Positions 4,612 to 62,748 of a stretch of DNA of 64,000 nt are shown one piece after another (within the stretch, counting starts at the first letter, position 1; every line of letters starts with the position of its first letter). The stretch is from positions 35,375-99,374 of the IMG/VR virus record IMGVR_UViG_3300012979_000001; one strand, given 5' to 3'. Source of the stretch: a virus. Taxonomy: Duplodnaviria; Heunggongvirae; Uroviricota; Caudoviricetes. The position numbers and the translations under genes were made by a program. Below the pieces are notes generated by a model. The model ran no database searches, was not told where the DNA came from, and saw only the letters and a program-made list of their open reading frames with translations.

Positions 4612-4640
4612 TTGACAAGCTCGTGAGAGTGTGATATAAT
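4612..4640 (+). promoter_or_regulatory. sigma-A-type promoter TTGACA-17-TATAAT with TG extension (drives noncoding G-rich transcript)
   Basis: CTGACTTGACAagctcgtgagagtgTGaTATAAT. Confidence 0.6.
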
Positions 4641-4857
4641 GGGTATAGGAACATTTAAAATTTTCCTATCGGGAAAATTAATGTTCGTTCGTAGGGCTCT
4701 GCCCGCAGATGGTGGGGTGGGCAAATATAATTAAAGTAACGAGTTTCGAGTTAGTTTAATTATATATAAGGAAGATGGGGGTGTGGGGGAAGAAACCAAA
4801 TGCAACCTTTGTCAAGTAATTTTAATTAAAAAATCAATAAAATCAAAATAAAATGAA

Positions 4858-4906
4858 ATCTAAATTGGTAAAAACTATGATAATGCCAAATTTAGATTTT
4901 TTTTGT
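4858..4906 (+). terminator. terminator-like hairpin with T7 after a short noncoding unit
   Basis: AATCTAAATT ... AATTTAGATT plus TTTTTTT. Confidence 0.35.
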
Positions 4907-4982
4907 AAAAATGGCATCTAACCCTTATGGCTCTAAGAGAATCTGTCACAAAAAAATGGTGTCAATTTTTTTTAAAAATGTC

Positions 4983-5011
4983 TTGACAAACTTTTGTCAT
5001 TATGATAATAT
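4983..5011 (+). promoter_or_regulatory. palindromic-box promoter (TTGACAAA-CT-TTTGTCA) for ORF 5043
   Basis: TTGACAAACTTTTGTCATTATGA-TAATAT. Confidence 0.6.
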
Positions 5012-5042
5012 AAATGTAGATTTTTGAGAAAGGAGGAAAAAT

Positions 5043-59153: not shown

Positions 59154-61552
59154 TGAAAGAATTAGAAGAGAAACAATTTGGTGCAACACCTCAAGAATGC
59201 TTTGAAGAAGGACTTCCAGACAAAGATGGAAATTATTACTTTGATGCAGTAATAACAGATAGCATTTATTGTGCTCCAGACAAATATGTTGCTCATACAT
59301 ATTATAATATATGTAAATTCAAAACAGATAGTCCAATTCCCAATTTAAATTATGATAAAAGGTTAGGAGAGCAATTCGGTAAACTATTAGGGAAAACCAT
59401 AGAGTTGCTCCCTACTGTTAGATATAGAGTTAAAGCCAAACCAGAAAGAAATGAGCAATATAATGAATGGCAATATCAAATTTTAAATGTGTGGGAGACT
59501 CAAGCACAAAGTTCAGATTTGTACGCCAATTATTTAAGATTTTTAACTACTCCAAATGGATATAAAATCATTATGGAAAATGATAAAAACTTTGTACAAA
59601 AAGTTCTTTCTGACGACAGCTTTAAAGGAGAAAGATTTAAAGGAATGCAACAAAGAACATATGACAAAATAGTTAGAGAGCTTAGAGAATACAAAGATTA
59701 TATGTCTATTATTGCAGAATTTAGTCAGTTTCCAGAGATTACAATGAATACTATTATGGCAATGTCTGATATAGCAAGTAATCCAAGACAAGCATTTAAA
59801 ATCATTAAAGACAATCCTTATATATTGACAAGTTTATCTGGTTTTGGCTGGAAAAGAGTTGATAGAATTGCAGAAAGATTAAATCCAGAAGCAAAAACAT
59901 CTACTCAAAGATTAATTAGTTATTGTACTTATGCATTAGAAGAAATTGCAAATGCTTCAGATGGAGGGCATACTTGGATATTTATCAACAATCCAATAGA
60001 CGTAAAACATAGTATGGCACATCTTATAAAAGAGAATGTTCCTGAATGTCAACCTTGTGTAAAAGATTATTTTGCATTAGAAAGAGAACTTACAAAAACA
60101 AGAGGTTGTGGAAACAAGTTTTACGTAGATGATGACAAAATAGGATTAGCAAGATACTTTAATGCAGAAAAGAATATATTATATCATTTAAATAGAATAA
60201 ATGATGGAAGAAAGATGGAGCCATTTATAGACATTGATACTGCAATCAGTAGAACAAATAAATGGATGTCAGACAGAGTTGGAGAACCAGTAACACTAAC
60301 AGAAGAACAAGAAAATGCCATAAAAGCAACATTAGATAATAATGTAGTTATTTTAACTGCTCACGCAGGAGCTGGTAAATCTACAACAATTAGAGGAATT
60401 ATTGATTTATGGCAAGGAAAAACAATTTCGTGTTGTGCGTTAGCAGCAAAAGCAGCAATAAGAATTAATGAAGTTTCTGGAGAAGGTGCTTCTACAATAC
60501 ATAGATTATTAGAATTTAGCCAAGGTTCTTTCCAAAGGAATGATGAATATCCATTAGATGCTGATATTGTTATTGTAGACGAATGCTCAATGATTAATGC
60601 AAGTTTATTTTTAAGTTTAGTAAGAGCAGTTAAAAATGAAGCAAAAATAATTCTTGTATTTGACGATGCACAATTACCTGCAATAGGAGCTGGTTCTGTT
60701 GCAAAAGATTTATTAGGCAGTCCATTTTGTATTAGAAGACTTACAAAAATTCATAGACAAGCTGCAAAATCTGGAATAAAAATAGATGCTAATAAAGTAA
60801 GAAAACAAATAGATGTATTTTTAGATGATTATGATTCTGCTGGAGAACTTCCAAAATATGTTGTTCACGGAGAAAAAAGCGATATGCATTATTGTTGTTT
60901 AAGAGAAAGAATGGATATCCACTCACAAACATTAGACATCTACAAAAAACTAATAAATTCTGAAGACAGACAAGTTTCAGCAAATGAAATTTCTATTATT
61001 GTTCCAATGAAATCTAATATGGAAAACTGTACAGATTCTTTTAATCAAGAGATTCAAGAGATTCTTTTATCTCACGAAAAACAATTTATTATTAGTGGAC
61101 AATATAAAGACAGTAAAAATTCTCCAAGAATATTTAAAAAAGGCTGTAGGGTCATAAGAAGAAAAAATGATTATGAGCAAATGGTATTTAATGGAGAAGT
61201 TGGAACTTTAATTGAAATTACACCAGATAAATCAAAATTTCAAGTAAAATTTGATGATGATAGAATAATTGAATTTAAATCAAAAGAACTTGCTAACTTT
61301 GATTTGGCATATGCATTAACAGTACATAGTATGCAAGGCTCTGAAAATAAAACTATTATCTTTGTTATGGATAATAGACACAATATATTATTAGACTCAA
61401 CATTGTTCTATACTGCAATAACAAGAGCAAAAGAACAAAACTATGTAGTATTTCAACCAAGTGCATATAAAGCTGCTTTAACCAACGATAAAGTTTGTGC
61501 AAGACAAACATTCTTGCCAATATTAATGAACCAAGAAAAAGGAGATGAGTAA
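59153..61552 (+). CDS. RecD-like (RecD2/TraA-type) SF1B DNA helicase
   Basis: Walker A TAHAGAGKST, motif II IVIVDECSM, motif V/VI ALTVHSMQGSE; long N-terminal domain. Confidence 0.7.
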   Translation: MKELEEKQFGATPQECFEEGLPDKDGNYYFDAVITDSIYCAPDKYVAHTYYNICKFKTDSPIPNLNYDKRLGEQFGKLLGKTIELLPTVRYRVKAKPERNEQYNEWQYQILNVWETQAQSSDLYANYLRFLTTPNGYKIIMENDKNFVQKVLSDDSFKGERFKGMQQRTYDKIVRELREYKDYMSIIAEFSQFPEITMNTIMAMSDIASNPRQAFKIIKDNPYILTSLSGFGWKRVDRIAERLNPEAKTSTQRLISYCTYALEEIANASDGGHTWIFINNPIDVKHSMAHLIKENVPECQPCVKDYFALERELTKTRGCGNKFYVDDDKIGLARYFNAEKNILYHLNRINDGRKMEPFIDIDTAISRTNKWMSDRVGEPVTLTEEQENAIKATLDNNVVILTAHAGAGKSTTIRGIIDLWQGKTISCCALAAKAAIRINEVSGEGASTIHRLLEFSQGSFQRNDEYPLDADIVIVDECSMINASLFLSLVRAVKNEAKIILVFDDAQLPAIGAGSVAKDLLGSPFCIRRLTKIHRQAAKSGIKIDANKVRKQIDVFLDDYDSAGELPKYVVHGEKSDMHYCCLRERMDIHSQTLDIYKKLINSEDRQVSANEISIIVPMKSNMENCTDSFNQEIQEILLSHEKQFIISGQYKDSKNSPRIFKKGCRVIRRKNDYEQMVFNGEVGTLIEITPDKSKFQVKFDDDRIIEFKSKELANFDLAYALTVHSMQGSENKTIIFVMDNRHNILLDSTLFYTAITRAKEQNYVVFQPSAYKAALTNDKVCARQTFLPILMNQEKGDE

Positions 61553-61553
61553 T

Positions 61554-62705
61554 ATGAAACTATATTGTGATTATTCTGCTACAACACCAATTCTTCCAGA
61601 AGCACTTGTTGCGATGATGCCATATTTTATAGACAGATATGGCAATCCATCTTCTGTATATTCATTGGGAAGAGAAGCAAAACAAGCATTAGAAGGGTCA
61701 AGAGATATTATTGCAAGTCTTTTAAATTGTCAATCTGAAGAAATCATATTTACAAGTGGAGGAACTGAGAGTGACAATTTAGCAATTAAAGGTATTGCCA
61801 AACTAAAAGGGAAAGATGGATTATATATAACAAGTTCAATAGAACATCCAGCTGTTTTAAATTGTTTTAAAGCATTAGAAGAAGATGGATATGATGTTTT
61901 ATATTTAGATACTTTTCCTAGTGGTTCAGTAGACCTATCTAAATTATTAAATGCAATGGATGATAATAAAAAAATCAATTTTGTTTCTATTATGTATGCA
62001 AATAATGAATTGGGAACAATACAAGATATTGAATTAATAGGGAAACTATTAAAACAATATGATAAAGATATTGTATTTCATACAGATGCAGTGCAATATA
62101 TAGGTAAACAAAATATTACTTTAAGAGAAAGTACAATAGACTTATTATCTGCTTCAGGACATAAATTTGGTGCAATAAAAGGTGTAGGCTTTTTATATAA
62201 AAAAGAGAACATTGACATATATCCTCAAAATTTAGGTGGAGGACAAGAAAGAAATTTAAGAAGTAGTACAGAAAATGTTGCAGGAATTGTTGGTATGGCA
62301 AAGGCTTTAGAAACACATTGCTTAAAAATTAATGATATTAATGAAGATATTAAGGTCAAAGAAAAATATTTGGCAACATTATTAGAATCAAATATTGAAG
62401 GATTACATTTCAATTCTCCTCCTAATGCTATAAAAGTTGATGGAGTAATAAATGTTCGATTTGACAATATTGATGCACAAGCATTATTAACATACTTAGA
62501 TAACAAAGACATTTGTATTTCTGCTGGTTCAGCTTGTCATTCAGATAGTGATACACCTTCTCACGTTTTGAAGGAAATAGGATTGTCTGATGAAGAAGCA
62601 TTATCATCTGTTAGAATTTCATTTGATAATACAATTACTTTAACAGAAATAGAATATCTAGTTTATAACATAAAAGAAGGAGTAGAATACCTTAGAAATT
62701 TCTAA
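61554..62705 (+). CDS. cysteine desulfurase (NifS/IscS class V aminotransferase)
   Basis: PLP-Lys block SASGHKFGAIKGVGFLY and active-site loop SAGSACHS; RBS AAAAGGAGA. Confidence 0.75.
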   Translation: MKLYCDYSATTPILPEALVAMMPYFIDRYGNPSSVYSLGREAKQALEGSRDIIASLLNCQSEEIIFTSGGTESDNLAIKGIAKLKGKDGLYITSSIEHPAVLNCFKALEEDGYDVLYLDTFPSGSVDLSKLLNAMDDNKKINFVSIMYANNELGTIQDIELIGKLLKQYDKDIVFHTDAVQYIGKQNITLRESTIDLLSASGHKFGAIKGVGFLYKKENIDIYPQNLGGGQERNLRSSTENVAGIVGMAKALETHCLKINDINEDIKVKEKYLATLLESNIEGLHFNSPPNAIKVDGVINVRFDNIDAQALLTYLDNKDICISAGSACHSDSDTPSHVLKEIGLSDEEALSSVRISFDNTITLTEIEYLVYNIKEGVEYLRNF

Positions 62706-62719
62706 ATTTTCTACTTAAC

Positions 62720-62748
62720 TTGACAAAACTTTGTCGATATGTTATAAT
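62720..62748 (+). promoter_or_regulatory. palindromic-box promoter
   Basis: TTGACAAAACTTTGTCGATATGTTATAAT. Confidence 0.65.

Follow-up and report, generated by a model that had tools for sequence, protein, structure and literature searches.

The initial annotation of a 64,000-nucleotide stretch of a Caudoviricetes virus (IMG/VR record IMGVR_UViG_3300012979_000001, positions 35,375 to 99,374; here called the window and numbered from its first letter) described promoters in which the -35 hexamer is at the same time one arm of an inverted repeat. The question raised by these promoters is whether the repeat serves a regulator of its own or is simply a part of the promoter. Our analysis leads us to propose, with a probability of about 0.55, that an operator made of two 7-bp arms around 2 bp (7-2-7), suited to a dimeric phage repressor, is superimposed on sigma-A promoters and coordinates the rightward arm of the phage genome. 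The repeat itself is real, and it is very probably a functional operator defining a regulon restricted to one arm.

The palindrome and the promoters that carry it

The string TTGACAAANNTTTGTCA occurs in nine exact copies in the window, all on the plus strand, with 0.00 copies expected in shuffled sequences. By allowing up to two mismatches, 40 strand-matches were obtained, corresponding to 22 distinct sites (0.96 expected). Nineteen of these 22 sites map to non-genic DNA or gene 3' ends, which account for 14% of the window; the two-mismatch matches located inside genes, at 8287, 26576 and 49682, are probably due to chance. Sigma-A promoters contain 15 of the sites, 14 on the plus strand and one (1383) on the minus strand, a number lower than the "at least 20" plus-strand operons originally counted. 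In fact, the full 34-nucleotide string of that count is present exactly at four promoters and within three mismatches at nine, to which two promoters with an 18-bp spacer have to be added. Of the remaining sites, the one at 30200 is a perfect palindrome with a poor -10 box, three (3740, 45907, 62853) are stand-alone copies, and that at 5748 is a variant longer by one base; the stand-alone copies and the longer variant had escaped the initial annotation.

The promoters, which we term class A, show a TTGACA box, a spacer of 17-18 bp and the sequence TRTGnTATAAT, and they belong to the host sigma-A type with an extended -10 element. At least 12 promoters score 12/12 for the -35 and -10 boxes at a spacing of 17-18 bp, nine such promoters with the TG dinucleotide lying between 26 and 46 kb alone and all on the plus strand, so that the near-consensus character first attributed to these elements is fully borne out. 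All sites are located 49-220 bp upstream of a same-strand ribosome-binding site (RBS) and open reading frame (ORF) or of a tRNA cluster, and 6 of 15 are immediately preceded by a terminator hairpin, unconserved in sequence. The -35/-10 spacing, the TRTG element and the co-oriented upstream location are all those of sigma-A promoters.

A sequence logo was built from 30 non-redundant sites of the window and its relatives, the informative parts being the centre, the flanks and the degree of invariance of the right arm. In these sites the spacer measures 17 bp in 26 cases and 18 bp in the others, and the TRTG element at -17 to -14 is conserved as T in 27, R in 30, T in 30 and G in 29. Specifically, the right arm TTTGTCA (-25 to -19) is nearly invariant, and the two central bases are variable yet G/C-rich despite the 28% G+C of the genome, reading CC in 11 sites and GG in six. 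As CC and GG are the same duplex reversed, the constraint on the centre is blind to the direction of transcription, which fits a symmetric binder and not RNA polymerase. The outermost base of the right arm is instead unconserved (A in 11, G in 10, T in 5 and C in 4 sites); the symmetric unit is therefore the 16-mer TGACAAA-NN-TTTGTCA, and the inverted repeat of the initial annotation, far above chance as it is, has to be shortened from its proposed 18 bp. The 16-mer spans positions -34 to -19 and is centred at -26.5, with the left arm coinciding with the -35 box and the right arm lying in the spacer.

Upstream of the palindrome, the block TTTCCAYYTRAC is conserved, with C at -36 and A at -42 in all 30 sites. 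It contains the CTGAC and CTAAC variants, so that the two upstream sub-variants noticed previously do exist as parts of a longer element. Exact copies of TTTCCAYYTRAC occur only directly beside TTGACA, and an extension of the dyad into this block was sought without finding any symmetry partner.

By comparing 18 orthologous promoter pairs, taken from genomes with 70-80% identity, it appears that the arm is retained with an identity of 0.72-0.94, against 0.39-0.50 for the two central bases, and that, beyond 12 bp upstream of the -35 box, identity falls to about 0.3-0.5 and the sequences become unalignable. Promoters 33097 and 19132 lost, or never gained, an arm which their orthologues carry perfectly, the orthologue of 19132 in one relative being a perfect palindrome. 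In addition, about 59 consensus promoters of the clade lack the arm and share TTGACAAA together with TRTGnTATAAT, which means that the arm is unnecessary for the consensus promoter type of this phage. Their spacer is information-poor and A/T-rich, a spacer "box" searched for in this armless class was not found, and their upstream DNA is A-rich and UP-like. The promoter at 4600-4640, with which the range given in the initial annotation begins (at 4612), lacks the second arm while possessing the upstream block; the two modules are thus separable.

The copies found outside the -35 context point in the same direction. The one at 45907 is kept in the relatives although its flanks diverge and carry an indel, and that at 3740 is partly conserved in two other lineages, making three lineages in all. 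At the position of the longer variant at 5748 the relatives show a canonical palindrome (contigs L001, 1164, and L185, 7799), and the orthologue of the 4983 promoter in relatives is palindromic with a TATAAT -10 box. A further case is provided by the gene for the histone-like protein HU, which lies to the right of the window in the same phage (L192, 15160-15532) and also occurs in the relatives L002, L162 and L175: 13 bp beyond the -10 box of its class A promoter there is a second exact palindrome, which spans about +9 to +25. HU is the most heavily "operated" gene that we found. A second conserved motif, TTATGTAAA, was seen downstream of stand-alone copies, and it is unrepeated in the window. 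In conclusion, the logo, the orthologous pairs, the armless promoters and the copies outside the -35 context together support, at the level of sequence, the view of the second arm as a separate, selected and symmetric element, such as a dimeric DNA-binding regulator would need.

The distribution of the palindrome differs between the two genome arms. It is present in 15 of about 21 strong rightward promoters, plus HU, whereas among the leftward early-arm promoters only one of the six of the window and one of the 12 of the relative L185 carry it (Fisher p = 0.027 and 0.0008, respectively, versus the rightward 15/21). The rightward palindromic promoters include those of two tRNA operons and of the operons for Pnkp/RNA ligase, polymerase and sigma factor; beyond the window region, loci of the relatives that carry this promoter include HU, in a nucleotide-metabolism block, and one gene among tail-like genes. 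The palindrome marks the rightward replication, nucleotide and tRNA arm, a bias which fits a regulon. Being nearly absent from the leftward early arm, it does not place the whole early programme under its control, and the claim of a command over "essentially the whole early and middle programme" has to be abandoned. The statement that minus-strand promoters do without the second arm mostly stands, the exception being 1383, which carries the arm with two mismatches.

These observations suggest a mechanism in which a two-fold symmetric dimeric protein, most likely encoded by the phage and made from the leftward early arm, would bind the 16-mer. Binding at -34 to -19 should exclude sigma region 4 and RNA polymerase; since the class A promoters are already perfect for sigma-A and the site sits on the -35 box, the protein would probably act as a repressor. 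About 16 rightward transcription units would in this way be repressed or throttled together, including those for replication, RNA repair and nucleotide metabolism, two tRNA operons, the sigma-factor operon and HU, and at four operons the leader copies would contribute a roadblock or make binding cooperative. The dyad with a variable centre, the conservation outside promoters and the overlap with the core promoter are those of a dimeric-repressor operator, with a putative cognate protein. We lean towards a role in lytic timing or feedback rather than in lysogenic silencing, because a dozen unprotected consensus promoters of the early arm would stay active in a lysogen and because no lysogeny genes or integrase were seen in the parts of the phage read.

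Candidate binding proteins and comparison with known systems

The early arm encodes clade-specific helix-turn-helix (HTH) proteins with invariant DNA-reading helices, and our best candidates for the binder are the HTH gene 3212-3598 and an Xre-type gene, X1, located to the left of the window. The former, already suggested in the initial annotation, survives as a candidate. Its C-terminal 65 residues are almost invariant across the clade, while the N-terminus varies, and its structure model consists of a long helix, a three-helix HTH and a C-terminal helix, with predicted local distance difference test (pLDDT) values above 90 for residues 60-126 only. A profile search against the PDB returned the Sleeping Beauty PAI domain (E = 0.02) and resolvase HTH domains, and a Foldseek search with the model gave nothing below E = 0.4. 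The X1 protein (127 aa) is encoded in the early arm of the same phage about 2.2 kb left of the window (L007, 1606-1962) and is also present in relatives. It matches HTH_3, HTH_19 and HTH_31 and has a conserved C-terminal helix; its recognition helix GVSQSY does not vary, against an identity of 41-56% elsewhere in the protein. A phage-encoded HTH_3 protein with a dimerisation region, as in Xre/lambda-Cro-type systems, is therefore present, and its binding to the palindrome is putative. Distant homologues of both proteins were sought for protein-operator co-variation, and both families proved to be confined to the clade.

A more specific proposal would combine these elements: a small phage dimer, with 3212-3598 as the lead, each HTH of which reads a -35 hexamer (TTGACA on both strands) in competition with sigma-A region 4, and which, together with the double operator of the sigma-factor operon, would form a timing switch from host sigma to phage sigma. 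We consider it a distinctly unlikely one in this full form. The helix SRELARQ/K of 3212-3598 resembles the RE..RQ pattern of sigma region 4.2, a likeness unconfirmed by profile or fold searches.

A further candidate binder is the Ros/MucR-like zinc-finger protein of 33586-34080 (plus strand), 75-79% conserved in the clade. This protein has an extra N-terminal Cys4 motif, and its type is unusual for a phage of a low-GC host. Other proteins are unlikely to be the binder. The tandem-HTH protein 35628-36146, which the initial annotation had also put forward, is homing-endonuclease-like and absent from every relative examined, though these relatives keep the palindrome. X2, an Xre-type protein of 133 aa encoded beside ligase and phosphatase genes in relatives, did not turn up in those parts of the window phage that were read. 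The phage HU is an ordinary HU (E = 1e-27 to cellular HU versus 3e-12 to TF1) and, with its double operator, looks like a tightly controlled target rather than the binder.

With respect to the class of regulator, the 5-6-5 or 7-2-7 geometry is right for an HTH dimer, as initially stated, but the assignment to the Crp/Fnr type does not hold: the half-sites are TGACA/TGTCA and not TGTGA-N6-TCACA or TTGAT-N4-ATCAA, the centre is at -26.5 and not at -41.5 or further upstream, and no protein of that family (cNMP-binding plus HTH domains) was found among the window proteins scanned against Pfam. A MerR-type promoter is excluded by the spacer of 17 bp (26/30) or 18 bp instead of 19-20 bp, and control through Spo0A 0A boxes by the fact that only 1383 and 62720 read TGTCGA, the consensus of the element being TGTCA(n)T. 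A literature search for the two octamers brought up nothing but the cop box of CopY/CopR (KACAnnTGTA), whose spacing is different.

In sequence searches the 43-nucleotide consensus gave only single, chance-level matches in cultured phages, and the 16-mer alone gave mostly single chance matches in IMG/VR, plus an unrelated family of ATGTGACAAAATTTTGTCACAT clusters. The latter, a palindrome related to that of the window, occurs in clusters with many TGTCACA repeats in unrelated viral contigs of 150-190 kb (L013, L057, L026 and L113; IMG/VR 3300006261_000031 and 3300008363_000002), and these clusters look like an iteron or operator array. Two isolated finds were also recorded: a promoter-plus-palindrome reading TTGACAAAGCTTTGTCAAtatgtTATAAT before a copper-transporting P-type ATPase gene in a metagenome-assembled genome (MAG) of the Eubacteriales (L133, 3668-3696; JAZOQA010000019.1), and a symmetric promoter pair, ATTATACCATATTGACAAACTTTTGTCAATATGGTATAAT, at 2325-2364 of L181 (Ga0114918_10061048), a contig without DNA similarity to the window.

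Classical operators of HTH dimers include those of lambda and 434 (ACAA-N6-TTGT), CRP (TGTGA-N6-TCACA) and the 7-2-7 sites of NarL. The window element shares with them the dyad symmetry, half-sites about one helical turn apart, a variable and presumably uncontacted centre and, as proposed here, repression over the -35 box; its half-site differs from those of lambda/434, CRP and NarL, the inner ACAA...TTGT being 2 bp closer than in 434. The C1 repressor of phage P1, a temperate plasmid prophage of enterobacteria, acts on more than a dozen dispersed operators which are asymmetric 17-mers. One repressor serving many scattered promoters is what we propose for the window phage as well, the difference being the asymmetry of the P1 operators. 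In T4, MotA boxes replace the -35 box and activate, and promoter-early stem-loop cassettes are known; SPO1 encodes TF1, a phage homologue of HU. The window phage recalls T4 in having a class tag inside host-type promoters and terminator-promoter cassettes between genes, and SPO1 in having an HU homologue linked to early promoters, although its HU is an ordinary one.

Among large Firmicute phages the closest parallel is SPbeta, in which MrpR (YopR) binds all copies of SPBRE, found in about ten promoter regions, and in which these sites had been predicted in silico long before the protein (PMC10516654). In both phages one short, partly palindromic element is repeated at promoters. However, SPBRE reads AAATACAAAAAATATGTAT in SPBc2 and its position is variable, while the window site TGACAAA-NN-TTTGTCA is locked onto the -35 box; moreover SPbeta is temperate, and lysogeny genes, as mentioned, were not seen. 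In the 50 kb of SPBc2 that were read there is no copy of TTGACAAANNTTTGTCA with up to two mismatches, and a tblastn search for a YopR/MrpR homologue gave only E > 1 in the window and in the fetched parts of the relatives. The motif being different and no YopR homologue having been found in these parts, membership in the SPBRE/MrpR system is rejected. Cluster A mycobacteriophages carry dozens of stoperators, one of which overlaps the early promoter and others of which, inside transcription units, block elongation; these are asymmetric, orientation-dependent sites of 13-14 bp bound by a monomer (PMC9283540). The stoperators within transcription units are comparable to the leader copies of the window phage. 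In contrast, the window element is a palindrome, is mostly embedded in promoters and concentrates in one genome arm, with only four copies in leaders, so that it does not qualify as a stoperator.

Features of the window and of the phage

Coordinates of the palindromic promoters, of the other copies of the element and of two HTH genes in the window
Feature	Position	Strand	Remarks
Promoter with second arm TTGACAAAAGATTGTCG, 2 mismatches	1355..1383	-	only minus-strand (early-arm) case; L185 orthologue has 1 mismatch
Candidate regulator, 128 aa, C-terminal HTH, early arm	3212..3598	-	weak HTH_28/HTH_38 match
Stand-alone palindrome TAGACAAACTTTTGTCT	3740..3756		28 bp upstream of the -35 box of the 3212-3598 promoter
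Promoter with TTTCCATCTGAC upstream block, without second arm	4600..4640	+	
Promoter with exact palindrome TTGACAAACTTTTGTCA	4983..5011	+	A-rich upstream, weaker -10 TAATAT; drives 5043-5684
Class A promoter CTGAC-TTGACAAAGTTTTGTCA-gTGTGaTATAAT	5694..5722	+	drives 5785-6504
Leader copy with one extra central base, TTGACAATTTATTTTGTCAA	5748..5767	+	adjoins RBS of 5785
Class A promoter, 18-bp spacer	13833..13862	+	terminator hairpin upstream
Class A promoter	14490..14518	+	
Degenerate copy TTGACAATCCTTTGACA, -10 TACAAT	19132..19160	+	in 3' end of gene 18789-19151
Class A promoter	26223..26251	+	immediately 3' of terminator hairpin
Class A promoter, 1 mismatch	27486..27514	+	heads tRNA cluster starting at 27596
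Exact palindrome, poor -10	30200..30216	+	between tRNA-Gln and hsp20-like gene at 30260; promoter status uncertain
Tandem-HTH protein, three HTH repeats	35628..36146	+	homing-endonuclease-like DNA-binding modules
Class A promoter, TTTGCCA arm	36669..36697	+	heads tRNA-Phe/Lys/Cys
Palindromic promoter, A-rich upstream	37051..37079	+	followed by about 500 nt without ORF, then tRNA-Asn
Class A promoter	38124..38152	+	after terminator; 218-nt leader
Class A promoter	40504..40532	+	operon holding Pnkp/RNA ligase (41066-43327)
Class A promoter	45829..45857	+	operon of Gp157-like protein, phage sigma factor and SSB-like protein
Stand-alone palindrome GTGACAAACCTTTGTCT	45907..45923	+	leader of Gp157/sigma-factor operon, about +43 to +59
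Class A-like promoter, 18-bp spacer, TTTGTCT arm	55513..55542	+	upstream of DNA polymerase III alpha
Class A promoter, TTTGTCG arm	62720..62748	+	conserved leader ending in terminator-like hairpin
Stand-alone palindrome GTGACAAAGGTTTGTCA	62853..62869	+	between leader hairpin and RBS of 62915; identical in relatives

The window represents the early and replication part of an uncultivated phage whose genome measures about 198 kb: 10.3 kb of the window are 100% identical to the ENA contig ERZ27246411 k141_1829593 (197,699 bp), and contigs of 193-201 kb are common among the relatives, with a DNA identity of 70-80%, many complete contigs of 194-201 kb coming from gut metagenomes. DNA searches of cultured phages, near and distant, returned no close match to the window, and SPbeta-like phages are among the best matches of some of its proteins (Pol III alpha and RecD2). 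The host is probably a low-G+C gut Firmicute; the sole, weak hint as to its identity is the binning of two small relative contigs in the chicken-gut MAG "Candidatus Ventrenecus avicola". The annotated genes for replication and repair comprise DNA polymerase III alpha (two ORFs), RecD2-like and UvrD-like helicases, RecJ and primase, accompanied by an SSB-like protein, an ATP-dependent ligase, Pnkp/RNA ligase, ClpP and a small sigma factor. Twenty tRNA genes lie within 27.6-37.7 kb, and these are the only matches of an Rfam scan of the window.

The genes to the left of about 4.5 kb run leftwards and are small, of no assigned function and each provided with its own consensus promoter, upstream of which the DNA is A-rich and UP-like; this arm extends at least 10 kb past the window edge in relatives, and its layout (window 1-4500, minus strand; L185, 9895-20420; L134) recalls a host-takeover module. 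To the right, all genes share the rightward orientation over about 69 kb, until a convergent endolysin gene is reached. Two early-arm proteins, 2101-3042 and 3793-4371 (minus strand), have repeated CxC...CGC zinc-ribbon-like motifs, the latter with a partial match to an HNH-endonuclease PHROG and the former with no family match. The segment 34077-36146 (plus strand), with its ParB-like and triple-HTH genes, was not found in the related sequences fetched, which have a different insert there, and is accessory and probably mobile. DNA polymerase III alpha is split into two overlapping ORFs (55757-57796 and 57744-59153, plus strand); since the 197.7-kb ENA contig shows the identical split, an assembly error in the window can be discounted. 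The UvrD-like helicase is likewise split (44035-45144 and 45122-45796, plus strand).

Some regions downstream of the promoters deserve mention, all on the plus strand. The region 4641-4830, downstream of the 4612 promoter, is an ORF-less, G-rich segment of about 185 nt whose conservation in four lineages exceeds that of the adjacent DNA; several hairpins are predicted in it, with six of their pairs changed on both sides, it has no Rfam match, and it is a candidate phage non-coding RNA. No convincing ORF follows the 37051 promoter in 37080-37595, which could be a long pre-tRNA leader or a non-coding RNA. The leader of the 62720 promoter (62756-62850) is highly conserved and has at its end, immediately ahead of the second palindrome, a terminator-like hairpin AGGAAAG...CTTTCCT with a T-run after it; this leader could represent an attenuator or a short RNA.

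Weighing the explanations

Several considerations count against a dedicated phage repressor. The regulation is predicted from sequence, the proteins proposed as its binder are candidates, and the repression of strong replication and tRNA promoters would be a plausible logic. The left arm and the -10 box (and the palindrome) were used to select the sites of the logo, and their invariance is thus partly circular. The copies at 45907 and 62853, which show GTGACA and a weak -10-like sequence, could be decayed tandem promoters; the independent lineages are few, two IMG/VR relatives being nearly identical to each other in the regions of the stand-alone copies. Finally, the profile and fold searches with 3212-3598 gave only non-significant, generic HTH matches. 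To these must be added the possibility that the palindrome belongs to a global regulator of the host, whose site the phage exploits, for instance to silence the replication arm, just as phi29 uses Spo0A boxes for host-state-dependent silencing. The candidate status of any phage binder, the single occurrences of the 29-nucleotide promoter architecture in a few bacterial genomes and the relatives binned in the "Candidatus Ventrenecus avicola" MAG would agree with this. However, the bacterial matches are single ones in unrelated taxa (39-49% GC) and few enough for chance in 596 Gb, and the clade-specific early HTH proteins are a simpler source. Among the boxes of host regulators, those of LexA, Fur, CcpA, Rex, NrdR and CopY do not seem to fit, and the Spo0A box TGTCGAA fits two sites. 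We judge an exploited host site to be rather improbable.

A rival account does away with any dedicated regulator: the class A block would be a promoter cassette spread by duplication or recombination, in the manner of the T4 promoter-early stem-loop cassettes, or its spacer an intrinsic strength element read by RNA polymerase. What is conserved is indeed a compact unit of about 42 bp, which in 6 of 15 cases directly follows a terminator hairpin, the asymmetric TTTCCAYYTRAC is never apart from TTGACA, and the extended TTGACAAA is common to all promoters of the phage. Yet the arms do not change, and the differences among copies and between orthologues are confined to positions -18 and -13 and to the centre, which indicates selection and not recent copying; moreover, the centre is found in both strand orientations, copies of the palindrome persist outside promoters, and many equally consensus promoters have no arm. 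We regard this account as unlikely. That the second arm might recruit an activator or a sigma-appropriation factor, MotA-like or MerR-like, and so switch class A promoters on, is brought to mind by the conserved spacer or -30 box marking T4 middle promoters and by the MerR-type sites between -35 and -10. The perfect -35 box, the optimal spacing of 17-18 bp and the extended -10 leave nothing to activate, MerR-type control requires a spacer of 19-20 bp, and MotA boxes replace the -35 box instead of duplicating it, all of which makes activation very unlikely. There is an equally slight chance, or a shade less, that the element works as an RNA hairpin (for processing, stabilisation or modulation of the RBS) in leader or read-through RNA: transcribed leaders contain four of the copies, two of which adjoin an RBS, and many promoters have no upstream terminator and would receive read-through transcription, but the hairpin is weak (-3.7 to -6.0 kcal/mol), its position is fixed to the -10 box and not to RNA features, most copies lie upstream of their own transcription start, and the arm sequence is invariant, with no pairing-preserving compensatory changes seen. 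As for the right arm being the -35 box of a divergent, back-to-back promoter, the metagenomic contig L181 offers a perfectly symmetric 40-bp divergent pair sharing the palindrome; in the window, however, the minus-strand -10 position reads RTGGAA (the complement of TTCCAY) and not TATAAT, no minus-strand genes are found at class A sites, and most right arms read CTGACA, GTGACA or ATGACA on the minus strand, so that we give this idea next to no credence.

In conclusion, an operator for a dimeric phage repressor is the reading that we prefer. Its principle is known already from the repeated repressor sites of P1, cluster A mycobacteriophages and SPbeta; what is new is this example, and the conceptual gain is small. 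The combination of promoter and operator is a compact, very strong and potentially switchable part for low-GC bacteria. If one protein reads the 16-mer, the approximately 16 promoters would represent a ready-made regulon of a clade of uncultivated phages of about 198 kb and, if this is true, they would open the temporal programme of a phage with an uncultivable host to direct testing.

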